From an uncultured Acidobacteriota bacterium (GTDB taxonomy: Bacteria; Acidobacteriota; Thermoanaerobaculia; UBA5066), in assembly GCA_963839295.1 (NCBI GenBank), contig CAWIUK010000010.1, positions 160,101 through 224,100 of the forward strand: 64,000 nt of DNA, written 5' to 3'. Positions within the stretch are counted from its first letter, which is position 1, and each line of letters starts with the position of its first letter. The translations under genes and the position numbers were made by a program. The notes below the pieces were generated by a model. It ran no database searches. It had not been told where the DNA came from and saw only the letters and a program-made list of their open reading frames with translations. Below are positions 31,182 to 44,078 of the stretch, piece by piece.

Positions 31182-32105
31182 TCAGCTCCGGAGGTTGATG
31201 ACGTTGCGGAAGTCGAAGACGTCGAGATACGCGCGCAGGTTCCGGAAGTCCGGATAGAGGCGCGCGAGGCGGTCGAAGTAGTCCTGCGACGCGGCGGCGT
31301 CGCCCGAGAGGTGCGAGGCCTCGCCGAGGAGGTAGAGGAGGTTCTTCTCGGCCTCGAGGTCGCCGGCGACGGCGACGCGGGCGAGGCCCTCCTCGCCGAA
31401 CCAGCGGGCCTGCTCGTAACGGTCCTGCTTGAGGTAGCCGAAGCAGAGGTCGAGGAGCGGGTAGACGGTGAACCCGCGGGCGGCTTCCTTCTCGAGCGTG
31501 TCGAGCGCCGCGTGCACGAGGGCGAGCCCGTCGGCGACGCGGTCCTCGGCGATCTGGCAGTAGCCGAGGTTGTCGGACCACTGTGCGCGCGGCACGGAGA
31601 GAAGCGCGGCCTCTCCGGCCGTGCACTCCAGGGCCGAGCGGTACGCGGCGGCCGCCTCGCCGAAACGGCTGTCGGCCGCCAGGGCGTTGCCGACCTCGTT
31701 GAAGCAGGCGCCGATCAGGCGGACGTCGCCGATCTCCTCGGCGTGGCGCCGCGCGAGGTTCGCGTAGAAGAAGACCTTGCTCCGCTCCTTCCGGAGGCGG
31801 TAGATCGCGGCGCTCGAATAGGCCGCGCGGAACGCCGTCTGCGGCTCGCGCGAGCGCAGGAGGATCCGCTTGAGCTCGACGAGCTCGTCGGCGGCCGGAC
31901 CGGTCTCGGCGGCCGCGGCGGCGCGGCAGACGTAGATCCAGTCGACGAACGCCGGGTCGGCCGTCTCGCGCGCGGAGGCGAGCGCCGCGTCGTAGCACGC
32001 GAGGGCGGCCGCGAACGCGCCCTTCTCGAGCTGGACGAGGGCGTCGCGGCGCGAGGCCTCGGCGGCGGCGCGGGCCGCGGCGGCTTCCGTCGTCGCCTCA
32101 GCCAT
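31182..32105 (-). CDS. Cytoplasmic TPR-like helical-repeat protein
   Basis: 307 aa. Repeated A/Y/L helical hairpins (AFAAALACYDAALA, AYRSALECTAG, YEQARWFGEEGLA, SQDYFDRLARLYPD). The start overlaps the XRE gene end by 8 nt. Confidence 0.65.
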   Translation of the reverse strand: MAEATTEAAAARAAAEASRRDALVQLEKGAFAAALACYDAALASARETADPAFVDWIYVCRAAAAAETGPAADELVELKRILLRSREPQTAFRAAYSSAAIYRLRKERSKVFFYANLARRHAEEIGDVRLIGACFNEVGNALAADSRFGEAAAAYRSALECTAGEAALLSVPRAQWSDNLGYCQIAEDRVADGLALVHAALDTLEKEAARGFTVYPLLDLCFGYLKQDRYEQARWFGEEGLARVAVAGDLEAEKNLLYLLGEASHLSGDAAASQDYFDRLARLYPDFRNLRAYLDVFDFRNVINLRS

Positions 32106-32583: not shown

Positions 32584-33351
32584 TTGAAGAACAAGATCTT
32601 CCTGCTCTCCGAGCTGCTCCGCCGGGACCTCGCGGCCCGGTACGCCGGGAGCTTCGCGGGCCCCTTCTGGGCGGTCCTGAATCCGGCCATCATCTGCGCC
32701 CTCAACGCCTTCGTTTTCGCCTACGTCCTGAAGATCCCCACCCCGAGGGGATTCGGAGGGACGTACGTCGAATTCCTCCTCGCGGGGATGCTCCCCTGGC
32801 TGGGAGTGCAGGAGGCTATCGTCCGGGGCACGACCTCGATCACCGACCAGGCGCACCTCGTCAAGAAGCTGAGGTTCCCGGTCGCGCTCCTGACGCTCTC
32901 CTCGGTCGGCGCGGCCCTCGTCATCCAGACGATCGGCATCGCGCTCCTGTCGGCGTTCCTCGTCGTCTCGGGCCGGGGGCACGTCCAGCCCCTCCTCCTC
33001 CTCGTCGCGTTCGCGTTCGAGCTCCTCGTCCTCGCGGGCCCCGCGCTCATCCTCGCCTCGCTCAACCCGTTCTTCCGCGACCTCGCGCAGATCCTCCCGC
33101 CCGTCCTCATGATCGCGTTCTACGTGACGCCGATCCTCTACGCCGAGGAGCTCGTCCCGGCGTTCGCGGCCCCCGTCCTCGCGGTGAATCCCCTGCGCGA
33201 CGTCGTCGCGCTCTTCCGCGCGGCGCTCTTCGGCATGGCGCCGCCTCCGGTGCGCCGTCTCGGCGTCGAAACCGCGGCATTCATCGTGCTAGGCTTTGCG
33301 GGACGTCAGCTGTATCGCCGGCTCCGGCCGGCATTCGCCGACCTTCTCTAG
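32584..33351 (+). CDS. wzm: ABC-2 type polysaccharide/O-antigen export permease
   Basis: 255 aa, TTG start. LLRRDLAARYAGSFAGPFWAVLNP is the typical Wzm/TagG N-terminal motif. 6 TM. Confidence 0.85.
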   Translation: MKNKIFLLSELLRRDLAARYAGSFAGPFWAVLNPAIICALNAFVFAYVLKIPTPRGFGGTYVEFLLAGMLPWLGVQEAIVRGTTSITDQAHLVKKLRFPVALLTLSSVGAALVIQTIGIALLSAFLVVSGRGHVQPLLLLVAFAFELLVLAGPALILASLNPFFRDLAQILPPVLMIAFYVTPILYAEELVPAFAAPVLAVNPLRDVVALFRAALFGMAPPPVRRLGVETAAFIVLGFAGRQLYRRLRPAFADLL

Positions 33352-33415
33352 GCCCGAATTTGCGCTCGCCCGCCGGCCGAAGGCCGCCGGGTTCCGTGCG
33401 TCGACAGGAGATCTC

Positions 33416-35131
33416 GTGAAATCGTCCGTGTCCGTCCTCCTCGTGGCTGCGGTGCTCGGCGTCGCCGGCTGTTCCACCTCGCCCAAAGCGGCGTCCCCGT
33501 CACCCACCCCGTCGCCGTCGCCCGCTTCGAAAGAAGCGCAGGCGAAGACGAACCAGCGGGCCGAGTCGCTCCTCGGAGTGAGACCCCCCGTGGAGAACGC
33601 AGGGGAGGAAGACGGCCAGGTCGCGGCCCCGGTTCCGTACGTCGACCCCGAGACCGGAAGGCGCGTCCTCAGCATCCCGAAGGGCGGCGTCGGCACGCAG
33701 TACTACGAGAAGAACGGCCGCCTGTTCCTGGCGATGGTCTCGAGCGGAGGCGTCCCGATCCTCCGGCAGGACGACAAGGCGTGGATCGTCGAGGCGCCGG
33801 CCGAGCCGAAGAAGCGCGACCCGAATGCCGCGCCCGCGGTCGAGGACCAGGAGCCGATTTACGAGGTGCCGAAGATCGAGGCCGAGGTCGTCGCGCCGAA
33901 GACGTCGAAAGACCCCTTCCGGTTCGAGGAGATCTCGGCGGGCCTGCCCCGGACCGGCATGTGGCGCGAGAACTTCGACCTCGGCGACGTGCTCGGGGAC
34001 GGGCGTCCGCAGATCGTCGCGCCGCCCGCCCGGATGACGGGCCAGTCGCTCATGGTGTTCAAGCTCGGCAAGGACGACAAGGGCGCGCCGCGCTGGAGCC
34101 AGGCCCGGATCGAGCTCGAGAACCCCGACCAGCTCGACGCCGAATACGGCTTCGCGGCCGTCGCCGACGTCGACGGCGACGGGAAGCCGGACATCGTCTA
34201 CGGCGGACACGGCGCCGGTCCGGCCGTCGCCTTCAACAAGGGGGGCGGCAAGTTCGTCGCCGAGGCGCGGGGGCTCCCGCGGCCGATGTCCACGCGGGCG
34301 GTCGCCATCGGCGATCTCGACGGGGACGGACACAAGGACCTCGTCGTCATCTCCGACACGGGGGAGTGGGGGATTTCGGGCGGCAGGCCCGCCCTCGACA
34401 AGGACTCCACGTACGTGCGCGGGTACGACGTCCGCGCGTTCCTGAACGACGGGACGACCTTTCGCGAGGTCCACAAGGGCCTCGAGGGCGCGTGCTTCGG
34501 GTACGCGATCGCCCTGGCCGTCCCGAAGGACGCGAGCGGCGGCCTGCCCTTCTACAACTCCGCGTGCCGGTACTTCGGCGGGGCGCCGAACCTCTTCGAG
34601 TTCGACGCGAAGGCGGGAGAATTCCGCTACGCCGGCGGCGCCGCCGTCGAGGGCTTCGGCCAGCAGGTCGGCGCGGCGGCCGGCACCTACCGGGGCCGGC
34701 CCGCGATCTACGCGTCGTATTTCAAGCGCACGCCCGGCAACGGCGTGCCGAAGATCGACGGCCAGGGCGTGACGGTCTACTTCCGCGGCGCGGACGGGAA
34801 GATGGAAGCCAGGCGCGTCGTCAAGACGCTCCGGTTCGACACGGGCTCGCCGGCCATCGCGGCCGGCGACCTCAACGGCGACGGCCTCGACGACGTGGCC
34901 TGGGCCGACGAGTCCACGCACCGCATCCGCGTCTTCTTCCAGACCGCGGCGGGCGACTTCGAGGAGCTGGCCGAGGAGCGCGAGCCCACGTTCGTGAACC
35001 ATCCCACCTGCATGAGGATCGGCGACGTGGACGGGGACGGGCGCCCGGACCTCGTCCTCATGTACCAGTACCTGACGGGGGACGAGACGCGGTCGGGCGG
35101 TTTCCGGGTGTTCCGCGGCCTCGCGAAGTGA
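33416..35131 (+). CDS. FG-GAP/VCBS-repeat lipoprotein (integrin-alpha-like beta-propeller)
   Basis: Trimmed from ORF 33296 to GTG 33416, with SD AGGAG at 33406-33410. VKSSVSVLLVAAVLGVAGCS (lipobox), a PS-rich linker, and repeated DVDGDGKPDIV, GDLDGDGHKDLVV, GDLNGDGLDDVAW and GDVDGDGRPDLVL motifs. Confidence 0.8.
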   Translation: MKSSVSVLLVAAVLGVAGCSTSPKAASPSPTPSPSPASKEAQAKTNQRAESLLGVRPPVENAGEEDGQVAAPVPYVDPETGRRVLSIPKGGVGTQYYEKNGRLFLAMVSSGGVPILRQDDKAWIVEAPAEPKKRDPNAAPAVEDQEPIYEVPKIEAEVVAPKTSKDPFRFEEISAGLPRTGMWRENFDLGDVLGDGRPQIVAPPARMTGQSLMVFKLGKDDKGAPRWSQARIELENPDQLDAEYGFAAVADVDGDGKPDIVYGGHGAGPAVAFNKGGGKFVAEARGLPRPMSTRAVAIGDLDGDGHKDLVVISDTGEWGISGGRPALDKDSTYVRGYDVRAFLNDGTTFREVHKGLEGACFGYAIALAVPKDASGGLPFYNSACRYFGGAPNLFEFDAKAGEFRYAGGAAVEGFGQQVGAAAGTYRGRPAIYASYFKRTPGNGVPKIDGQGVTVYFRGADGKMEARRVVKTLRFDTGSPAIAAGDLNGDGLDDVAWADESTHRIRVFFQTAAGDFEELAEEREPTFVNHPTCMRIGDVDGDGRPDLVLMYQYLTGDETRSGGFRVFRGLAK

Positions 35132-35196
35132 GGTTCGGGGGCGTCCCGACACTCAATGGGTGATATGCGGCCCCAACATAATTTTTCGAAATGGCC

Positions 35197-35225
35197 TTGA
35201 CACCTTGGAATTTCGCCCCTATCGT
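35197..35225 (+). promoter_or_regulatory. Candidate sigma-70 promoter of the 35409 gene
   Basis: TTGACA (35197-35202), a 17-nt spacer, then TATCGT (35220-35225), in a low-GC gap. It implies a leader of about 175 nt before ATG 35409, which has SD TAGGAGA. Confidence 0.5.
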
Positions 35226-35408
35226 TCCGGCAGTGTTCGGGATATCTCTATCCGATTCGGTGCTCCCTTTGCCCCAGGGCGATGGGGGCGTTGCCTCTAA
35301 AAAAATTGCGGGAGGTGATTCGATATCGCAGGCGGCGAGCGCCCACGTTCCTCTAGTCATGATCGACGTAATCACACGTTTCAATCGAAATCACCGGTAG
35401 GAGAAAAA

Positions 35409-37058
35409 ATGAAGAAGTTTTCCGTTCTGATCGTGCTCGCGCTGCTCGCGGTTGCGGGTACGGGCTACGCGGTCACCTGCGCGTACGACAACGTGCCCGC
35501 GGCGACCCTCCTCGTCCCGTACTGGAAGGTGACGCTCAACGGCGCCACCGACTACCCGATTCCGACCGGCGGCACGGACACGCTCGTCTCCGTCGTCAAC
35601 GTCTCCACCCCCGGCGTGATCGCTCACGTCACGGTGTGGAACAAGTACTCCAAGGCCGTCGTCGACTTCAACATCCCGCTCACGGGCAAGGACGTCGTGT
35701 CCTTCTCCATGCGCGACGTCATGAACGGCAAGCTCAGCCCGAACCTTCCCCAGTACAACACGACGCTGTTCCCCGATGATCCGTGCGGCCTCATCAACCC
35801 GGGCGCCACGAACGCGATCTACCAGCCCTCCATCGGCTGGGCGGCGAACCAGTTCATCCGCTTCTCGAACCCTGACGCCGTCGCGGGCCCGTCCATCACG
35901 TCCGACACGTACCGCTCGATCTCGCAGTACAACCTGACGAACCCCGACGCCATCGGGCCGCTCTTCCGCCCGACCGTGTGGCACTCCCTCGACCAGTCCG
36001 GCGACATCACGACGTTCACGTCGTCCGGCGGCGCCAACATCCTCGACACGGACAACCCGGCGTGCAGCTCCAGCTGGAGCGGGGACTCGGTCTACAAGGA
36101 CGCCCTCTCGGGCTACCTGACGATCGACGTCGTCAACTACTGCACGAACTTCTTCCCCGACCAGCCCGACTTCTACGACAAGGACGCCATCGCGACGATG
36201 GGCTGGGGCCCGGCCAACGGCCTGACCTACACGCCGAACGTCCTGATCGGCGACATCTTCTACGTCGACTCGGCTGCCAACGGCGGCAACATCTCGGGCG
36301 ACCCGGCCGTCGCGGTCGAGTTCGACATGCGCCTGCCCTTCACGCCGACCACGAAGACCTTCTTCGGCAAGTTCGTCGCCTCGACGACGCCCACGCAGTG
36401 CGTCGCTGAGACGACCGGCGGCGTCACCGGCTGCACGAGCTACATCAGCGGCTACGCCCCGACGTTCCAGTTCGCCGGCGACGGCCGCGAGCCCCTCGGC
36501 GACCGCTACGGCTTCCGCTACCTCGCCGACTCGGCCAACGGCCTCCAGTCCTGGATCCAGGTCTGGCGCTCCGACTACTACAACGGCGCGGCGATCAACC
36601 TCTGCAACTGGGCGAACCCGGGCTCCGGCTTCGGCAAGGGCGCGGCGAGCACGACCGGTGCGAACTCCGGCATGTACGACGCCCTCCACCAGGTGCAGAT
36701 CTTCACGTACGACAACGACGAGAACGTCTACCAGGGCCAGGGCATCCCGCCCGGACCGTCCGGCCCCGGCCTGACGCCGCCCTCGAACACGTACATCTTC
36801 CTCGAGTCGCAGCGCATCAACCTGCTCACCGCCACCGGCTGGAACCCGTCGAACTTCGTCGGCGGCTGGGTCGACCTGACCCTCCGCGGCGCGACGATGA
36901 CGGGCGTCGATGCGGCGAACGGCCTCTACAACATGGGTTGGGTCGGTGTCATGCACACCGCGCCCGGCGCGTTCATCAGCGTCGGCCACGCGACGGCGAA
37001 CCTCAACAACCAGATGCAGTGCGCGCCGAACTTCACTGCACCAGGTACCCTCAACTAA
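35409..37058 (+). CDS. Orphan secreted Cys-containing surface protein (S-layer-like / major coat protein candidate), unknown family
   Basis: 549 aa. Signal peptide MKKFSVLIVLALLAVAGTGYA. Composition is rich in T/N/G/S/Y/W and poor in R/K/E, unlike its neighbours. 8 Cys. Own promoter, strong SD and a textbook terminator, so it is monocistronic. I recognise no motif. Confidence 0.8.
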   Translation: MKKFSVLIVLALLAVAGTGYAVTCAYDNVPAATLLVPYWKVTLNGATDYPIPTGGTDTLVSVVNVSTPGVIAHVTVWNKYSKAVVDFNIPLTGKDVVSFSMRDVMNGKLSPNLPQYNTTLFPDDPCGLINPGATNAIYQPSIGWAANQFIRFSNPDAVAGPSITSDTYRSISQYNLTNPDAIGPLFRPTVWHSLDQSGDITTFTSSGGANILDTDNPACSSSWSGDSVYKDALSGYLTIDVVNYCTNFFPDQPDFYDKDAIATMGWGPANGLTYTPNVLIGDIFYVDSAANGGNISGDPAVAVEFDMRLPFTPTTKTFFGKFVASTTPTQCVAETTGGVTGCTSYISGYAPTFQFAGDGREPLGDRYGFRYLADSANGLQSWIQVWRSDYYNGAAINLCNWANPGSGFGKGAASTTGANSGMYDALHQVQIFTYDNDENVYQGQGIPPGPSGPGLTPPSNTYIFLESQRINLLTATGWNPSNFVGGWVDLTLRGATMTGVDAANGLYNMGWVGVMHTAPGAFISVGHATANLNNQMQCAPNFTAPGTLN

Positions 37059-37080
37059 ATCTTCCCTGCATTCAGGGCGA

Positions 37081-37113
37081 GCGGGCGGCTTCGGCCGCCC
37101 GCTTTTTTTCTTT
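37081..37113 (+). terminator. Rho-independent terminator
   Basis: GCGGGCGGC-TTCG-GCCGCCCGC followed by TTTTTTTCTTTT, 23 nt after the stop of the 35409 gene. Confidence 0.85.
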
Positions 37114-37300
37114 TGTCGGGGGAAAGGTCGGCTCGCGCGGCGGCACTCCCTGCGGAAGCTCGGTCCCCGGGCGCCTTTGAATCCTGTGCGTCTTTACAGG
37201 CGCGGTTCGGGAGGATACGATCGCTATGTCTCGTTTTATCAGCTCCTTGGCCGAGAGGAACTCAACGCGAAGCCAACCCCAGAGGGAAGCCCCTGAGCCA

Positions 37301-40300
37301 ATGAATGCGTCCTCGATGACCAAACCCCGCTCCGCACGAGTCCTCGGCGCGGCCGCAGCGCTGATTCTCGGCTCGCTCGCCTTTGCACCGGGCCGGGCCG
37401 ACGGCCAGTCGCAGTCGGCGTGCACGCTCACGGCGTCGCCGACGAAGTTCGAGGCGTATCCGCCCGGCGCGGCGCGCCCCGGCACGCTGGCGGCCACCTT
37501 CAGCTCGGCGCTCGTCCTCTTCCAGAACGCCGCCGGCGCGAACCGGATGATGATGAACGAGACGTTCGGGTACTCGATCCTCGACCTGACGAACCCGGCG
37601 AGCCCGTACGCGCTCAAGTACGACGACTTCCGCTTCGACCCCGCGAGCTCGACGACGAACCCCCTCACGCAGTCCGGCGACGGCCAGAGCGCGATCCAGA
37701 CGTTCGGCGTCTCGCCCGACGGCCAGCGCGCGGCGATCGCCGTCAACGGGCCCTTCGGCGCGTGGAACACGCTCGCGGCCCGGTCGGACGGGGGCGACGG
37801 GTTCGGCCTCTGGGGCGACTTTCCGCCGAGCCGGCCCTACGGCACGGTGGTCCAGCACGTCAACGGGCGGTACATCGCGTACGCGGTCCACCAGTCGAAC
37901 GGCATGACGGCGGCGGACATCACCACGCTCCCGACGTCCGTTCCCCAGCCGCTCCCGAGTCTGAACATCCCGTACGACCAGACGGCCCTGCCGCCGGCCT
38001 ACGCGCCGCCTCTCCTCCTCAAGGGGAACTACCTCGTCTACCGGACGGGAACGTACCCCAACGCGGCCGTCACGGTCATCGACGCCTCGAACCCGGGGAA
38101 CCCGGGCGCGATCGCGTCGGCGTTCAAGACGGTCTCGATCCCGTACCTGACGAGCGACCCGAACCACCGCGCGCCGGCCAACTTCACGGCGGCGCTCGAC
38201 CCCGGGGACGCGACGAAGCTCTGGATCCTCATCGAGGTGAGCGCCGCGAGCGGCGAGAAGGCTCCGAGCTACGGCCTCGTCGCGGTCACGAAGGACGGGA
38301 CGGGCAACCTCACGGCGGCGGCCGCCCCTGGCCTCTTCGGGGTCCCGTGGCAGCCCGCCGAGACCTGGGGGAACGCCGGTTACGCTTCGGCGCTCGTCGC
38401 GCAGAACGGGAATCTCTTCGTCGTCATGTGGGCGCAGCGCTCCCTGCCGAGCCAGCAGTTCGGGTTCTACGCGACCACGGCCTCCGCCTGGACACAGACC
38501 CCACCGGCAGGCCTTCCGTTCCAGCAGGTGGCCGCGCCCGGCTTCAACCTCCCCGCGACCAACGCGTCGGCGCTCGGGGGCGGCGGCGTCGCTCCCGCGG
38601 CGAACGTCTTCCAGTACTTCCCGACGGGCCTCGCCGCCTACGCCGATCCCGCTCGCGTGCGCGCCCGTCAACCCGAAGGCGACGAGCACGCTCACGGCGC
38701 ACGTCCGTACGGCGTCGCGGTCCCGAACAACGGCACGGTGTTCATCGGCGACGAGGTGGACATCACCGCCGGCCGTCGTCCCGCCGCCGATCGCAGACCC
38801 CGCTGGTTGGCGGCGGCGGGTGGTCAACTGCGGCTGGAACTTCGACTTCGACTTCCACTCGGGCGCCGCGCTCGAGGACGCCGGCGCGACGCCGCGAATC
38901 AAGCTCCCGACAACGCCGCGTTCGGCAGTCCGGGTCCGACCCCGTCCTCGCCATCTTCCTCGTCGGACCGTGCGACCCGGCATACACGGACTTCCGGCTT
39001 CCCCGTCGACCGGGACCGGTGCTGGACAGTCGGTCCTGAGCAACGCCTCCACCGGCGGCTCCGGACTTCACAGGGGCCGAAGCAGCCGGGACGTCGAAGC
39101 CCACGACGCATCGCGATGGAGGCGCAACAACCAGTACGGGACGAGCGGCACGGCGACGTTCACGATCAACTGGAAGGTCCCGGCCGCGAAGGTCGCGTCC
39201 ACGCAGATCCTCGTCGGCGCGCCTCGCTCGTCGAGCGCGTCGGACGGCCACCCGACGCGAACGGGTACAAGTGGTATTTCGGCGACACGCCGACGAACTC
39301 TCACGGTCTGCTCACCGGCGAGCTGCGACGGACTGCTTCGTGCGTCCCGTCGCGAACCAGCCGTCGGGACGCACTACTACTGGCTGACGGCGACATACGC
39401 CAACGGCTTCTCGACGCCGGACTACGACGGGCACGACGACGTCGGCCTGCCGTTCACGATCGCGAACTTCGTCGCCGGCGTTCACGGTCAACGGCTCCGC
39501 GTGCGGCCCCATCACCGCGCTCGATCAACAACCCCGTCAACGTCGTCAACAACTCGCAGCGCGGCAGCGGGATCACGCGCGACGTACCAGTACAGCCTCT
39601 GCCGCCGGCGGGTCCGTGCGCGGACAACTACCTCCCGTTCACGATCAACGACTCCTCCGGGGCGACGGGCACGATCCCGATCCCGGCAACGACCGGCGAC
39701 ATACGCCCTCAAGATCAAGGCGACGTACACGGGTGGGACGGGCGGAACGGTGTCCTGGCCTGACCCGGCCGGCGCCGCGTACTTCACGGTCAACGCCGTG
39801 AACATCCCCGCGACCACGGTTTCCTCGATCATCCCGAACCCCGTTCCCGCCGGCAGCAACGTCACGCTGACGTGCTCGGCGGTCGGCGGGTCCGGGTCTT
39901 ACACGGGATGGGCGTGGTACAGCAACGGAAACCAGGTCAGCACGCAGAATCCGTACACGTTCACGGCGACGAACGGCGGGACCGACGCGACGTCACGTAT
40001 CCGGTGACGTGCACCGCGACCGACAGCAACGGGCAGACGAGCCAGCAGAGCCCCGTCGCGAACGCTGACGATCCTCCACTCCGTCAAGCCCGTGGTCTCG
40101 GCATCCGTCAACCCGTCCAACATCGTGGGCGGCCAGTCCGCCACGTTCACGTGCAGCGCGACCGGCGGGACGGGGAGTTACACGCTCTACCAGTGGGCCA
40201 CGGGCCTTCGGAGTGGTCTCGGGCCAGAACCAGAGCACGTACGCGGTCACGATCAACGAATACGACGGGCTCGACGATGACCCAGCAGCTCTCCTGCAGC

Positions 40301-42763
40301 GTGACGGACACCGCGAGCGCGGTCGGCACGTCGTCGTCGCCTGCAACCCTGACGATCACGTCGTCCACCTCGGGACCGCCGAGCGGCGGCGCGCTGGCGG
40401 TGACGGCGAGCGCGACGCCGAACCCCGTGCCGGGCGGCCAGTCGAGCACGTTCTCGTGCTCGGCGAGCGGCGGGACGCCTCCCTACAACTACGCGTGGAC
40501 CGTGCCCGGGCTGCCCGGGAGCATCGCGGGTCCGCAGGTCACCTACCCCACGACCAACGTGTCGACGACGCAGACCGCGCAGATCGCCTGCACGGCGAGT
40601 GACTCCGGGGGTCACAACGGAACGTCCATCGTCACGCTGACGATCAATCCTTCGGGTCCGCCCTGTCCGTCGATGGACTTCACGGTGCTTCGGAACGGCT
40701 TCGCGCTCGCGCCGCCGATGGCCTCGAACGCGGGAGAAACCCTGGTCTTCTCGGTCTCGTCGGGCTTCGCGGCGGGCTCCGCGCCGTCGTACAAGTGGGA
40801 CTTCGGCGACGGCAGCCCGACCGTTTCCGGCGCGGACGCGACGTACGAGACGCACGCGTTCACCGCCGCGGGCACGTACACGGTCACGCTCCAGCCGACG
40901 AACTCGCTCGGCCTCTACTGCGGGGGCAAGTCGTACCAGATCACGGTCGCCGGGCCGAGCGGCAACTTCACGCCCTCCTACGACGACGGGTCGATCTTCG
41001 TCACGACGAACGTGACCGCAGGCAAGGTCGTGCGCTTCACGGCGGCCGAGCCCTCCGCGGATTCCTACGACTGGGACTTCGGCGACGGGACGGCCCACGG
41101 GACGGGACCGACCGTGCTGCACATCTTCGCCGCCGGGACGCCGGCCGTGACGCTCCACGTTTCGAAGGGCGGCGCCACGGCGACGTCGACGCCGCTCACG
41201 CTCACCGTGATCGCGCCCCCCGAGCCCCCGAAGTGGGTCGTGCCGGGCATGGCCTACGTGCAGGGGCAGGTCGCGGGCACGACCTGGCAGTCCGACGTGA
41301 CGATCATGAACCCCTCGACGCTCGCGGCGACCTACTCGGTCGCGCTGCTCGACGCGCGCCACCCCGTCACCGACTACTCGCAGCTGTCGTGGACGACGTT
41401 CACGGTGCCGGCGCTCGGCACCATCTCCGACTCCAACGTCCTTCCCGACGTCTTCGGCCAGCCGCTCGGGGCGTACGGCGCCCTCATGGTGCGCGGAGAC
41501 CTCGCGCCGCTGCCGCCGGTCATCACGGCGCGCACGTTCAACAACGGCGATCCGACGAAGGGCACGTTCGGCCTGTCGGTGCCGCAGTCGTCCGTTGCGG
41601 GCGGCGTCTCGACGCAGGCGGCGCCCGCCGCGTCGGTCCTGATCGGCCTCAAGCAGAATGCGGCCGCGTACACGAATCTCGGCCTCGTGAACCTCCACAA
41701 CGACTGGGCGACGGTCGAGCTCGACTTCTCCGACGGGACCTCGGCCGCCGATCTCGGCACGCTGACCGTGCAGATCAACCCCTACCAGTCGTACCAGATC
41801 AACAAGGCCCTGCAGGACGGCCGCCTCGTGGCGGGCGCGGGCTTCTTCGGCACGAACGGCCCCCCGACGAGCGACCTGTACACCGTCAAGGTGAAGGTGC
41901 TCGAGGGCACCGCGGTCTACCCGTACGCGACCGTCATCGACACGGCTTCGACCGACGCGACCGTCGTGACGCCGACGGCGAGCCCGTCGAATTCCTACCG
42001 CCTTCCGGGCATCGTCCGGCTGACGGGCGCAAACGGCGAGAAGTTCCGCAGCCGGGTCACGATTTCGAACCCGTCGTTCGCGTCGCGGACGGTCCACCTC
42101 GTCTTCTCGTACGTCGCCTGCAAGGGAGGCGTCTGCGCGAACCCCACGACGAACTTCGTCGACGTCAAGATGTCCCCGGCGCAGACGCAGACGTGGGACG
42201 ACTTCGTCAGGGTCTGGCTCACCGCCAACCTCATCCCCGTGGACGACGCGGCGAGCTACCAGACCTCGTTCCTCGACGTCTCGCCCGCGCCCGGCGACAC
42301 GAATTCCGACCCGCTCGTCGTCATCGGCGAGACGTACAACGACCTCGGCCTGGCGACCGACGGCGCGTCGAACGGCCACGTCGGGCTCCAGATCCCGGGT
42401 TACACGCCGCTCGACGGCGCGAGCTCGACGGGCGCGTACAAGCGCCTCGCCTTGACGGGGCTCGCATCCACGGCGAGCACGAGGAGCAACCTCGTCCTCT
42501 TCGTCATCGGCGGCGCGACGGGCAAGTGGGCGAACATCCACCTGTACTCGCCGGAGGGCACGCTGCTCAGGAGCATTCCGGTTCCCGTGGACGGCTTCAC
42601 GGTGTCGAACGGGACGCTCTTCTCCGGCCTCTCCGGCGACCTGAGCCGGGTCTCGGCGGTCATCGACAACATCGACGCCGGCGTGACCGTGGGCGCCTAC
42701 GCGACGATCATCGACAACAAGTCGGGCGACTCCACGTTCGTGAGGGCGACGCCCGTCCCCTGA
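37301..42763 (+). pseudogene. Giant secreted surface protein: LVIVD-type beta-propeller + Ig-like/PKD repeats + duplicated C-terminal ~250-aa module. The reading frame is broken about 20 times in the middle
   Basis: Signal peptide MNASSMTKPRSARVLGAAAALILGSLAFAPGRADG. LVIVD-like motifs (YSILDLTNPASP, VTVIDASNPGNP). PKD signatures (YKWDFGDGSP, YDWDFGDGTA). The frame is clean over 37301-38640 and 40275-42763, both in the same frame. Between these, protein-like sequence hops among all three frames. Track ORFs 37226..39763, 38820..40007, 40092..40280, 40213..40602 and 39872..42763 are pieces of it. Confidence 0.8.
38640..40275 (+). other. Frameshift-dense segment inside the giant surface-protein gene
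   Basis: Protein-like segments alternate between frames. Examples: IPLACAPVNPKATSTLTAHV (f0), RPYGVAVPNNGTVFIGDEVDIT (f2), VVNCGWNFDFDFHSGAALEDAGA (f0), DPVLAIFLVGPCDPAYTDF (f1), NNQYGTSGTATFTINWKVPAAKVASTQILVG (f0). Further examples: DANGYKWYFGDTPTNSHGLLTG (f2), THYYWLTATYANGFSTPDYDG (f0), FTVNGSACGPITAL (f1), INNPVNVVNNSQRGSGIT (f2), and so on. Confidence 0.85.
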
Positions 42764-42865: not shown

Positions 42866-44078
42866 ATGCCCGAGACCCCCACGGCGTACTCCTTCAGGAA
42901 TCTCTCGAAGGTCTACCGCCTCTACGCCGCGCCGCGCGACCGCCTCCTCGAGGCCCTCACGGGCCGGTCGCGGCACGCCGAGGTGCACGCGCTCCGGAAC
43001 GTCTCCGGGGTCGATCGAGAAGGGCGCCGTCCTCGGCGTCATCGGCGAGAACGGCTCCGGCAAGAGCACGCTGTTCAAGATCCTCGCGGGCACGACGGCC
43101 GCGACGTCGGGCTCGGTGAACATCTCCGGACGGATCGCGTCGATCCTCGAGCTGGGCTCGTCCTTCCACCCGGACGACACGGGCCGCCGCAACGTGATCC
43201 TGCAGGCGGCGCTCGCGGGCCTCTCGCGCGAGGAGGTGGCCGACGCGCTCCCCGAGATCGAGGAGTTCGCCGAGCTCGGCGACTTCTTCGACCGGCCGGT
43301 GAAGACGTACTCCTCGGGCATGCAGATGCGGCTCGCGTTCGCGGTCGCGACCGCGGTCCTCCCGGACGTGATCCTCCTCGACGAGGCGCTCGCGGTCGGC
43401 GACGGGCGCTTCCAGAAGAAGTGCGTGGACCGGATCTTCGAGCTCAAGGCCTCCGGGAAGACGATCTTCTTCTGCAGCCACGCGATGTACTACGTCTCGA
43501 CGCTCTGCGACCGCGCCCTGTGGCTCAACGCGGGCCGCGTCGAAGCCGACGGGAGCGCGCAGACCGTCGTCCTCGAGTACGAGCGGTTCCTCGCGCGGAA
43601 GGACCGCGCGGTGCCGCCGCACGGGGCCGAGGCGGCCGTCCCCGCCGGGACGCACGCCAAGCTGCGCGAGGTCGTCGTGACCGGGGCGGACGGGACGCCG
43701 AAAGAGGAGTTCCGGCCCGGCGAGCCGTGGGCGGTCGAGCTGGAGTTCGCCGCGGACGAGCCGGCCCGGCCGCTGCAGATCCACCTCGCCGTCTCGTCGC
43801 GGGACAACGTCGTCTGCTTCTCGGCGGATTCCCGCCTCGACGGGTCGGGCCCGTTCGTCGGGCAGGGCGTCTACCGCGTCCGCATCGGCATCGACTCCCT
43901 GCCGCTCGGCAAGGGGGAGTTCGTCGTCTACGCGTACGTCGGCGACGAGCACGGCCTCGCGCTCTTCGACGCGCGGAGCGACCGCACGTTCCGCGTCGAG
44001 TCGGACACGTGGCGGAGCGGCCTCCTGACCCTCCCGGCGGTGTGGCGCACGCTCGCCCCGCACGGCGGCCCCGCGTGA
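42866..44078 (+). pseudogene. wzt: O-antigen/polysaccharide export ABC ATPase with C-terminal carbohydrate-binding-type extension, interrupted by a +1 frameshift
   Basis: The N-terminus (MPETPTAYSFRNLSKVYRLYAAPRDRLLEALTG...ALRNVSG) is in one frame. After the GGGG run at 43007-43010, the sequence continues in the +1 frame: SIEKGAVLGVIGENGSGKSTLFKIL (Walker A), YSSGMQMRLAFA, ILLDEALAVGD. A ~165-aa beta-rich C-terminal domain follows. Confidence 0.8.

Follow-up and report, generated by a model that had tools for sequence, protein, structure and literature searches.

S-layer proteins assemble by themselves into two-dimensional paracrystalline lattices over the cell and rank among its most abundant proteins and transcripts. 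Genes for S-layer and major coat proteins typically carry long stabilizing leaders and strong terminators, a pattern on which the initial annotation of the DNA described here drew. Stabilizing 5′ UTRs of the E. coli ompA type, and long S-layer leaders such as that of Lactobacillus slpA, act through 5′ hairpins. Geobacillus and Paenibacillus have S-layer glycosylation (slg) clusters, where the S-layer gene has wzm/wzt and glycosyltransferase genes as neighbors. The Aeromonas layer is tethered through the O-antigen. In Aeromonas salmonicida the A-layer gene, vapA, and its secretion genes interrupt the O-antigen ABC-transporter cluster, separating wzm from wzt (PMC4483657). A further described system is the STAB-SD of Bacillus thuringiensis cry3A, a Shine-Dalgarno (SD)-like stabilizer in the 5′ leader (Agaisse and Lereclus 1996, reviewed in PMC4113751): this massively expressed gene has an SD-like leader sequence ~100 nt 5′ of the real start which can pair with the 16S rRNA 3′ end.

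The window analyzed here is a 64,000-nucleotide stretch of DNA from an uncultured bacterium of the Acidobacteriota class Thermoanaerobaculia. Members of this class are widespread in soils, wetlands and sediments but almost uncultured, and we know of nothing described about their cell surface; a search for literature on S-layers or metaproteomes of Thermoanaerobaculia returned nothing relevant. The window encodes a secreted protein, X, whose gene lies in the same sugar-export locus throughout this one class of soil Acidobacteria, and X is therefore probably a major cell-surface coat protein.

Gene X in a wzm/wzt locus

The gene for X is part of a conserved insertion bordered by wzm and wzt:

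32584..33351, forward strand: wzm, ABC-2 membrane component, left border of the conserved insertion (Pfam ABC2_membrane; synteny)
33296..35131, forward strand: FG-GAP/VCBS-repeat protein with a lipobox (…LGVAGC), directly 5′ of X (Pfam FG-GAP_3, FG-GAP; synteny)
35409..37058, forward strand: coding sequence of protein X, 549 aa, stop codon within the coordinates (homologue comparison and translation)
35409-35471, forward strand: signal peptide of X, Sec type, leaving a mature protein of 528 aa
37226..42763, forward strand: gene of a giant secreted PKD/Ig protein, directly 3′ of X, broken into three frames in the assembly
43116..44078 (fragment), forward strand: wzt, ABC ATPase with a Wzt_C glycan-binding domain, right border (Pfam ABC_tran and Wzt_C)

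X is encoded by a real stand-alone gene, present in a single copy in the genome. The protein begins MKKFSVLIVLALLAVAGTGYA, and its mature form (56 kDa, pI 4.4) is acidic, rich in Thr, Asn, Gly, Ser and Tyr (G 10.6, T 9.8 and N 7.8%) and poor in Arg and Glu (R 2.1 and E 0.9%), with eight conserved Cys residues that probably form four disulfides. The 549-aa reading frame with signal peptide and eight Cys, as well as the T/N/G-rich, Arg/Glu-poor composition, had been recorded in the initial annotation and are in agreement with our translation. S-layer proteins are typically acidic and contain little or no cysteine; the pI of X fits this pattern, whereas its eight conserved Cys do not.

Only the FG-GAP, X and giant PKD genes lie between wzm and wzt. 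The initial annotation had placed X between the halves of a split wzm/wzt pair and had raised the question of whether its homologues always adjoin giant Ig/PKD proteins. Both points hold: the order Wzm, FG-GAP lipoprotein, X, giant PKD protein, Wzt and glycosyltransferases (GTs) was found in 17/17 loci tested and in a relative with 31% identity, always with the giant gene directly 3′ of X. Judged by this gene order, the position of X between wzm and wzt is not accidental. The giant gene is intact in relatives (1575-1817 aa), as is wzt (orthologues of 397-426 aa), the N-terminus of which is in another frame in the window.

In comparison with the closest relative, X is 83% identical, the FG-GAP protein 73% and the giant protein ~60%, versus 92-94% for cytoplasmic and membrane neighbors; the three diverge faster than these neighbors, as exposed proteins do. 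X is better conserved than its giant neighbor (50% vs ~32% identity). A relationship of X to the duplicated C-terminal modules of the giant protein was rejected, as neither BLAST nor hhalign detected one.

Dedicated type II secretion genes are absent between wzm and wzt, and the window contains no secretion genes; two secretins are encoded elsewhere in the genome. The window likewise lacks a Wzy_C-type O-oligosaccharyltransferase, of which the genome has four, all on other contigs. The absence of secretion genes and of Wzy_C near X counts against a coat protein. It could be asked whether X is instead a periplasm-spanning or outer-membrane accessory of Wzm/Wzt export, standing in for missing polysaccharide co-polymerase and outer-membrane export components: it lies between both transporter genes in every locus, and no PCP or OPX-type gene was found among the proteins scanned beside it. 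However, the gene has its own strong promoter, leader and terminator, which uncouple it from wzm and wzt, whereas machine components are made in small amounts. X also evolves faster than Wzm and Wzt and gave no beta-barrel or Wza-like fold match, and we consider a role in the export machine highly improbable.

Family, predicted structure and possible functions of X

X had been described in the initial annotation as an orphan of an unrecognized family, of which only the second part stands. At least 310 homologues of X share 50-89% identity with it, and 1040 representative clusters are related to it at E<=1e-3, almost all of them from Thermoanaerobaculia. X is present in 4/4 genomes of the genus. 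Of the genomes sampled across the class, 21/27 carry family members, as do 4 of ~270 from the rest of the phylum. The family itself is indeed unrecognized: X matched no family in Pfam and NCBIfam at E<=1, none of 79 relatives matched in a Pfam search, and searches of the PDB by sequence and, with the predicted model, by fold returned no match. Homology to described S-layer families or anchoring domains (SLH, RsaA, SbsB/SbsC, SLAP and others in Pfam/NCBIfam) was not detected.

A first model of X, built from 43 close sequences, had a pLDDT of 59 and gave meaningless fold matches. The model improved because distant relatives were then added to the alignment, and the resulting AlphaFold model (pLDDT 83, pTM 0.89) predicts one compact, beta-rich globular fold with a beta-sandwich core and long loops. 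The fold search that had been proposed for this predicted structure matched it to no solved structure and to no enzyme family. The low-confidence, variable loops alternate with a conserved core, which we count in favor of a coat protein. An outer-membrane beta-barrel porin was also considered, given the similar look of ompA-like cassettes, and dismissed: the core is a predicted beta-sandwich with long loops, no porin matched, and the protein ends in ...APGTLN, without the C-terminal aromatic residue of porins.

Several features of X are less expected of a coat. Four probable disulfides, a single compact globular fold as predicted, and relatives that are tandem or fused are unusual for S-layer proteins, and X is better conserved than S-layer proteins typically are. 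In distant family members the module is repeated in tandem or joined to a PKD, Calx-beta, P-domain or lipase-like domain; a coat subunit could have such relatives, but a module for binding or catalysis would suit them equally. Moreover, D27, T58, N64, S66, H73, D86, D95, D240, E304, D358, R360, E361, R370, D435, E438 and E466 are near-invariant in homologues down to 27% identity, and the many Asp, Glu, His and Arg residues among them could form an active site. X might then be an enzyme with a new fold, either secreted or periplasmic and strongly expressed because needed in bulk, which processes the glycan polymer of the locus or hydrolyzes an environmental polymer. This would be in keeping with its single compact globular unit (pTM 0.89), with a residue constellation invariant or nearly so over that range, with conservation exceeding that of the neighboring surface proteins, and with the fusion of related modules to the above domains, as in many exoenzymes. 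However, X shows no sequence or fold similarity to any enzyme family, and its conserved acidic residues could equally bind structural calcium. So elaborate a cassette, conserved at the nucleotide level, is rare for enzymes, and an enzymatic function would leave unexplained the fixed place between wzm and wzt together with two other envelope proteins. We therefore regard an enzyme as unlikely.

The most widely shared part of the family is the N-terminal beta-sandwich (~95 aa), which is found again in numerous multidomain secreted proteins across the class. This recurrence, the genetic link to a glycan exporter and a composition rich in aromatic residues, Asn and Thr would also be expected of a lectin-like adhesin or extracellular-matrix protein, one that is abundant and binds sugar polymers or surfaces without forming an ordered lattice. 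The present data fit such a protein and a coat protein alike, but a single-copy, lineage-universal gene in fixed synteny is a better fit to a core envelope component, and an adhesin seems to us quite unlikely.

We favor, at somewhat less than an even chance, the reading that X is an abundant envelope coat protein tied to the Wzm/Wzt glycan, with its gene arranged like vapA of Aeromonas. X would be the main secreted structural envelope protein of this Thermoanaerobaculia lineage, forming an S-layer-like or matrix coat. Its partners would be the polysaccharide that the flanking Wzm/Wzt transporter exports and, probably, the FG-GAP lipoprotein and giant PKD protein encoded alongside it. Presumably X is produced abundantly, leaves the cytoplasm through Sec, is oxidized to four disulfides, is carried across the outer membrane by some route, and is held on the surface by binding the glycan of the locus. 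If X is the main coat protein, it represents a new protein family with probably a new fold, it could serve as a lineage marker for metaproteomes and metatranscriptomes, and the lineage acquired the layout of a coat gene within an ABC-type O-polysaccharide locus independently of Aeromonas.

The expression cassette and its leader

Gene X is surrounded by the following expression signals:

35174..35196, forward strand: A/T-rich tract CAACATAATTTTTCGAAATGGCC abutting the -35 box, possible UP-like element
35197..35225, forward strand: sigma-70-type promoter TTGACA-N17-TATCGT, consensus score 10/12
35232..35408, forward strand: 5′ leader of ~177 nt, start predicted from the promoter, 7 nt after the -10 box
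35309..35328, forward strand: near-invariant leader element CGGGAGGTGATTCGATATCG (alignment of relatives' leaders)
35325..35408, forward strand: in-frame upstream extension, 28 codons from a near-cognate AUC, no stop before the ATG
35398..35404, forward strand: SD TAGGAGA of the annotated start, inside the nearly invariant GGTAGGAGnAAAAATGAAGAAG (sequence and alignment)
37079..37114, forward strand: intrinsic terminator GCGGGCGGC-TTCG-GCCGCCCGC and T-run, hairpin at 37079-37104 with an 11-bp stem (9 G-C) and a UUCG loop

The promoter is the best sigma-70-like match (10/12) in positions 1-60000 of the window. The same promoter occurs 200-245 nt 5′ of the ATG (297 nt in one locus) in 37/40 distinct genome loci, its spacer (GGAATTT.G.CCC) is also conserved, and relatives keep a CA.CATA(A/T)TTTT tract upstream of the -35 box, where the A/T tract may act as an UP-like element. 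The start region of X is nearly invariant at the nucleotide level in relatives. The terminator, too, is the strongest in positions 1-60000, and a near-identical hairpin lies 3′ of the gene in relatives down to ~55% protein identity. This shared conservation of promoter and terminator points to more than chance. Promoter, SD and the rank of the terminator had all been called in the initial annotation and are upheld, the rank over positions 1-60000, with its leader of ~175 nt becoming ~177 nt if transcription starts 7 nt past the -10 box. The gene it had called monocistronic is a self-contained single-gene cassette, with promoter, leader element, start region and terminator conserved across the lineage.

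The cassette is apparently suited to strong expression. Codon adaptation of X to the ribosomal-protein set is 0.766, ranking 124 among 2684 ORFs (top 5%, not extreme). Gene-sized contigs are found for 20/112 protein clusters of X, compared with 1/101 for an equally long neighboring gene (Fisher p = 1.4e-5). The flanks of 24 such short contigs have a median of 133 nt upstream and 18.5 nt downstream; the longer flank is upstream in 22/24 (p = 3.6e-5), and the upstream flank is <=220 nt in 21/24, too short for the promoter. For one distant cluster there are six assemblies of 1718-1749 nt, and several of the transcript-like contigs start 1-5 nt 5′ of the leader element. The JGI sample numbers of these contigs led to no sample type or metatranscriptome source. 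We considered whether the contig ends are breaks of the assembly graph at conserved 20-30-mers, which could explain the 5′ ends at the leader element but would leave unexplained why 3′ ends fall short of the conserved terminator hairpin. Codon usage and these contigs are indirect indicators of the high expression that the initial annotation had supposed.

The core of the leader element, GGAGGTGAT (35311-35319), is complementary at all 9 nt to the 3′ end of the genome's own 16S rRNA: this end reads ...GGATCACCTCCTTTCT, and the core pairs with ...GGATCACCTCC.... The core lies ~98 nt 5′ of the ATG in the X leader and 85-125 nt 5′ of it in 38/41 loci, and is also present in the leader of a homologue with 32% identity. 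The full 20-mer element is found once in the 4.05-Mb genome.

By contrast with this sequence-level conservation, the Rfam and covariation analysis that had been proposed for the leader (35232-35408) yielded no Rfam match and no covariation. The whole leader does not fold more stably than shuffled sequences (z = -0.49), and RNAalifold on 34 leaders returned no consensus structure, only an invariant 4-bp stem. By eye, small hairpins can be drawn near the 5′ end of the leader and past the element (CGGC-GAGA/AGGA-GCCG). They show one or two compensatory changes, but their registers differ between groups. In predicted folds the element is mostly paired (mean unpaired probability 0.16), which counts against its use as a docking site. 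The partner predicted for it varies by lineage: in the window's group it is GCCUCU, upstream of the element, and in the largest group CCUUUCGA, downstream of it. A conserved helix therefore cannot be claimed.

The AUC at 35325 is placed 5 nt past GGAGGTGAT and is followed by an open frame that continues into X. This main frame is open to the ATG in 73/75 unique leaders, compared with 11/75 and 5/75 for the other two frames; among lineage representatives it is open in 25/26, with a joint chance of ~1e-10. The distance from element to ATG is 2 mod 3 in 66/75 unique leaders, 67/75 have an in-frame ATC, ATA or ACG 5-6 nt past the element, and eight leaders have an in-frame ATG at their very 5′ end that gives a 55-56-codon extension. 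The open frame and the position-conserved AUC suggest that the leader element may initiate translation. A conserved small uORF ending at the TAG inside the real SD was rejected because its frame has internal stops in most leaders.

These observations raise the question of whether the SD-like element marks the true start, in which case translation would always begin at a non-AUG codon, X would be 28-35 aa longer at its N-terminus, and the annotated ATG would be internal. The perfect 9-nt SD with its 5-nt spacer and in-frame AUC, AUA or ACG, the open frame and the eight leaders with a 5′-end ATG are all as expected of this arrangement. Yet the annotated ATG has its own SD, in which not even synonymous sites vary, and a textbook signal peptide comes after it. 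In the bacteria studied, AUC initiates only very weakly. The extension peptide is also poorly conserved, and its codon-position periodicity, which argues against the docking function as well, is weak (0.40/0.52/0.72) or absent (0.50/0.46/0.52). A true start at the element is accordingly very unlikely.

In the leader model we propose, the perfect anti-SD complement, the 5-nt spacing, the AUC and the open frame would together make a strong ribosome-docking site that protects the X transcript and loads it with ribosomes. Occasional initiation at the AUC would stay productive, since the extra residues would only lengthen the n-region of the signal peptide, which is removed by signal peptidase. The initial annotation's long stabilizing leader would be correct as to length, but in place of a simple stabilizer it holds a ribosome-binding-like element with an in-frame open extension. 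Taken together, the full picture is possible but doubtful: X as the subunit of an unrecognized Thermoanaerobaculia coat, disulfide-stabilized and of a fold outside the PDB, borne on the Wzm/Wzt glycan with the FG-GAP and giant PKD proteins, and expressed through a new type of AUC-docking leader ~100 nt upstream whose frame is kept open and whose upstream starts merely lengthen a cleaved signal peptide. The leader would offer a clear example from nature in which selection protects the reading frame of an upstream ribosome-binding site but not the peptide encoded there. It may be of more general interest, as it bears on how very abundant bacterial mRNAs are stabilized and loaded and on the annotation of gene starts.

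Comparison with known systems

The X locus resembles that of the Aeromonas A-layer in having the gene of a secreted surface protein of ~50 kDa between wzm and wzt of an ABC-2-type export cluster, with the structural gene directly followed by wzt-side genes. It differs in that the place of type II secretion genes is taken by those of the FG-GAP lipoprotein and the giant PKD protein. In addition, X has eight Cys, no sequence similarity to a described S-layer family was detected, and any layer that it forms is putative. With the slg clusters, the locus shares the link between a surface-protein gene and an ABC-transporter-dependent glycan pathway with GT2 and GT4, and a Thr/Ser/Tyr-rich protein; unlike them, it has no Wzy_C-type O-oligosaccharyltransferase in the window, and its host is diderm.

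As with ompA and slpA, the X message would be a monocistronic envelope-protein mRNA, abundant by inference, with a long leader and a strong terminator. In the X leader, however, no conserved global structure was found; what is conserved is the sequence of a ribosome-binding-like element. The leader also resembles STAB-SD: a sequence complementary to the 16S 3′ end, GGAGGTGAT at 35311-35319, lies far from the start, and several transcript-like contigs of X begin just before the element, as does the stable cry3A 5′ end. A STAB-SD does not itself direct translation initiation and acts against a 5′-3′ exoribonuclease, RNase J. A search of the 89%-complete genome with the RNase J profile TIGR00649 gave no match, and this counts against the leader model. 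What distinguishes the X element from STAB-SD is that it is followed by a position-conserved near-cognate codon and by a frame that is open into the main ORF.

The X gene, its signals and its locus

The gene under study encodes X, and the following features are found in and around it:

35197-35225, + strand: sigma-70-like promoter TTGACA-17-TATCGT (10/12, top match in window positions 1-60000)
35309-35328, + strand: conserved leader element CGGGAGGTGATTCGATATCG, defined by sequence conservation
35325-35327, + strand: near-cognate codon of the window leader, in frame with X
35398-35404, + strand: Shine-Dalgarno sequence TAGGAGA of the X ATG
35409-37058, + strand: X coding sequence (549 aa, starting MKKFSVLIVLALLAVAGTGYA, 8 Cys)
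37079-37104, + strand: terminator-like hairpin (11-bp stem with 9 G-C pairs, UUCG loop, T-run)

The initial annotation described a 549-aa protein with eight Cys, rich in Thr, Asn, Gly, Ser and Tyr and poor in Arg and Glu. The open reading frame and its composition bear this out: mature X has 528 residues (56 kDa, pI 4.4), with Gly, Thr, Asn, Ser and Tyr abundant and Arg and Glu scarce. The near-consensus promoter, the TAGGAGA and the leader of about 175 nt were likewise found, the leader being ~177 nt if transcription is predicted to start ~7 nt past the -10 box, and the hairpin singled out as the best terminator is indeed the strongest within window positions 1-60000.

Of 40 distinct genome loci, 37 have the promoter 200-245 nt (297 nt at one locus) before the ATG, and an A/T-rich tract precedes its -35 box. 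Because the 17-nt spacer between the two boxes (35203-35219) is itself kept across loci, as GGAATTT[CT]G[CT][CT]CC, it suggests a regulator site overlapping the promoter. The start region of X, GGTAGGAGnAAAAATGAAGAAG, is almost invariant, and the sequence of the terminator hairpin, GCGGGCGGC-UUCG-GCCGCCCGC, hardly differs where the X proteins share just ~55% identity.

Gene order is identical in four long contigs with X at 83, 64, 55 and 50% identity: the minus strand carries XRE-HTH, TPR and unknown lipoprotein genes (the last two missing from the 50% relative), and the plus strand carries wzm (membrane component of an ABC-type polysaccharide exporter), an FG-GAP/VCBS-repeat lipoprotein gene (FG-GAP), X, a giant PKD/Ig gene (~1700 aa), wzt (the exporter ATPase, with Wzt_C), GT4 and then more glycosyltransferases. 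A relative at just 31% identity keeps this order. Each of the 17 loci tested by tblastn with the window proteins contained Wzm, FG-GAP, X, the giant protein and Wzt: the placement of X between the halves of a wzm/wzt pair, reported initially for this locus, is general among them, as is the giant Ig/PKD neighbour that the initial annotation had proposed to look for. The XRE-HTH gene is always divergent, upstream of wzm.

In the closest relative, X, FG-GAP and the giant protein are 83, 73 and ~60% identical to those of the window and the cytoplasmic and membrane neighbours 92-94%, so the three outpace their surroundings in divergence. Envelope-exposed proteins usually diverge faster. X is the best conserved of the three genes between wzm and wzt.

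The giant gene (37226-42763) is split here over three frames (ORFs 37226-39763, 38820-40007 and 39872-42763) and is a single ORF of 1575-1817 aa in relatives; the N-terminus of wzt (42866-44078) is not in frame in the window. A promoter-like TTTACA-17-TACGAT (37193-37221) stands immediately upstream of the giant gene, and the stretch past the X terminator, 37115-37225 (GGGAAAGGTCGGCTCGCG...CACTCCC), is kept in close relatives. Contigs C14 and C16 of the source genome carry four Wzy_C-domain genes, and two of these lie within very long open frames.

Family, distribution and predicted fold of X

X had been called an orphan, which did not hold: a word-indexed search yielded at least 310 homologues, the best 120 of which are 50-89% identical over their full length, and an exhaustive HMMER search of cluster representatives gave 1040 proteins at a threshold of E<=1e-3, of which 396 pass E<=1e-10. 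The few named homologues are all hypothetical proteins from Thermoanaerobaculia MAGs, and a one-genome-per-species scan placed nearly all of 39 loci in Thermoanaerobaculia or Acidobacteriota MAGs. Sampling 301 genomes of the phylum showed strong orthologues in 4/4 genomes of the genus and one other genome of the order, and weaker family members in 21 of 27 genomes of the class but only 4 of ~270 others. X is single-copy in the source genome. MAG MFD05942.bin.2.349 has two copies on separate contigs (L037 and L045), and a pattern search of L045, the second copy, finds neither promoter nor SD-like element.

That no family would be recognised proved correct: none of Pfam, NCBIfam and the PDB holds a match to X, and nothing came up when PDB sequences were searched by profile and Pfam with all 79 family members. 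A first AlphaFold model, from 43 close homologues, was poor (pLDDT 59); a second, from 79 aligned sequences with identities as low as 27%, has pLDDT 83 and pTM 0.89. It shows a single compact unit, with an N-terminal β-sandwich (~residues 30-100), a second β-sandwich core and long, partly variable loops. Foldseek of this model against the PDB, a check proposed at the outset, gave nothing better than E = 0.1 (TM <= 0.12 relative to the query). As the Foldseek, PDB-profile and Pfam searches gave no such match, the family appears undescribed, and the modelled fold is possibly new, judged among Foldseek's candidates only.

Close relatives share Cys24, 126, 219, 245, 331, 342, 399 and 538 with little or no exception, which makes four disulfides in X likely. 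Distant relatives P0186 and P0221 contain the complete X-like module twice in tandem, P0207 has two modules behind a PKD array of ~1400 aa, and others have its N-terminal part ahead of a lipase-like, Calx-beta or P-domain. The tandem pairs and PKD-array fusions mark the family unit as a portable extracellular module of ~400-550 aa. The C-terminal modules that are duplicated in the giant neighbour show no relation to X.

A conserved leader element and an open upstream frame

The leader has no Rfam match, no alifold consensus and no exceptional folding stability (z = -0.49), so the Rfam and consensus-structure analyses suggested earlier were negative. Its conservation lies in the element: the core, GGAGGTGAT (35311-35319), is found 85-125 nt upstream of the ATG in 38/41 loci, and a homologue at 32% identity has it too. 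It is a perfect 9-nt complement of the 16S 3' end of its own genome (...GGATCACCTCCTTTCT), a much stronger match than the real SD of X.

From element to ATG, 73 of 75 distinct leaders have no stop in the main frame (other frames, 11/75 and 5/75), and the distance is 2 mod 3 in 66 of the 75 and for 11 of 16 distinct lengths. Among 26 lineage representatives sharing <15% of 8-mers, 25 are open (single chances 0.12-0.65, product ~1e-10). An in-frame near-cognate codon follows the element by 5-6 nt in 67/75 leaders (ATC in 64, ATA in 2, ACG in 1). Frame openness, spacing and near-cognate codon together give this stretch the character of coding sequence read in the main frame. Conservation of the peptide it would encode is poor, and one group shows weak codon-position periodicity (0.40/0.52/0.72), another none.

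The other eight leaders, of the d = 85, 88 or 112 groups, have an in-frame ATG at the extreme 5' end, giving a 55-56-codon extension. The predicted transcript start (35232-35235 in the window) reads A-ATG or A-GTG in nearly all 34 aligned leaders, and leaderless initiation at a 5'-terminal ATG is conceivable.

We propose that the element would act as a strong ribosome-docking site, serving mRNA protection, ribosome loading or both. Selection may keep the main frame open so that AUC initiations stay productive: these would merely add 28-35 residues to the n-region of the signal peptide, and should be tolerable because the extension goes with a peptide that is cleaved anyway.

Expression, function and comparison with known systems

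The high expression first proposed for X was assessed through indirect indicators. With 20 ribosomal-protein and elongation-factor genes of its own genome as the reference, the codon adaptation of X is 0.766 (rank 124 among 2684 crude ORFs; median 0.59). The TPR gene of the divergent HTH-TPR-lipoprotein operon (31182-32105, minus strand) ranks above it (0.80, rank 37).

Contigs confined to the gene plus 300 nt account for 20 of 112 X clusters, versus 1 of 101 for the equally long FG-GAP neighbour (Fisher p = 1.4e-5). Flanks are asymmetric in 24 gene-sized X contigs, with medians of 133 nt upstream and 18.5 nt downstream and the longer flank upstream in 22 (p = 3.6e-5); 21 have <=220 nt upstream, not enough for the promoter, and 17 end 5-30 nt past the stop codon, shortly before the terminator stem. 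A distant cluster is represented by six separate assemblies of 1718-1749 nt. If the samples are metatranscriptomes, such contigs would be assembled monocistronic transcripts; assembly-graph breaks at conserved sequence are a partial alternative. The gene-sized contigs L069, L072, L082 (= L008), L105, L007 and L056 begin within the CGGGAGGTGAT element or 1-5 nt before it. Such ends could reflect a second start site, RNA processing that leaves a stable 5' end, or a graph break at a conserved word.

We tentatively favour, at slightly under even odds, the view that X is a major coat protein of the envelope, presumably made in large amounts and linked to the polysaccharide of the locus. This reading fits a conserved single-gene cassette with strong signals, Sec export of an acidic, Thr/Asn/Gly/Tyr-rich protein, variable loops around a conserved core, a single-copy, lineage-wide distribution, and the constant position between wzm and wzt beside two other envelope proteins. 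A true crystalline S-layer makes up perhaps half of it: against a classical S-layer stand the eight Cys, the single compact predicted fold, the relatively high conservation, the fusion of X-related modules to other extracellular domains, and the lack of adjoining secretion genes (two secretins lie elsewhere in the genome) and of a nearby O-oligosaccharyltransferase. Some Asp, Glu, His and Arg residues are retained down to 27% identity and may bind calcium, lie at interfaces or form an active site; the last would suit an enzyme of new fold, which we consider unlikely. A lectin-like matrix protein or adhesin is somewhat less likely again, and an accessory of the export machine is improbable.

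The O-antigen cluster of Aeromonas salmonicida offers a published precedent: vapA, which encodes the A-layer protein, is inserted there between wzm and wzt together with its secretion genes (PMC4483657). The X gene is placed likewise. The leader recalls STAB-SD, the 5' mRNA stabiliser of Bacillus thuringiensis cry3A (PMC4113751): the element lies far upstream and can pair with the 16S 3' end, and several transcript-like contigs start 1-5 nt upstream of it. Unlike STAB-SD, it occurs in a genome with no detected RNase J (no TIGR00649 homologue in the 89%-complete assembly), is mostly paired in predicted ensembles (mean unpaired probability 0.16) with partners that vary by lineage, and, most strikingly, is followed by a coding-like main frame up to the ATG. 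A coat-protein cassette within an O-polysaccharide locus is a known kind of arrangement. The X family is described in none of Pfam, NCBIfam and the PDB, a literature search turned up no paper on it, and the new variants are this family, its apparent fold, its partner genes and the frame-protected dual-RBS leader.
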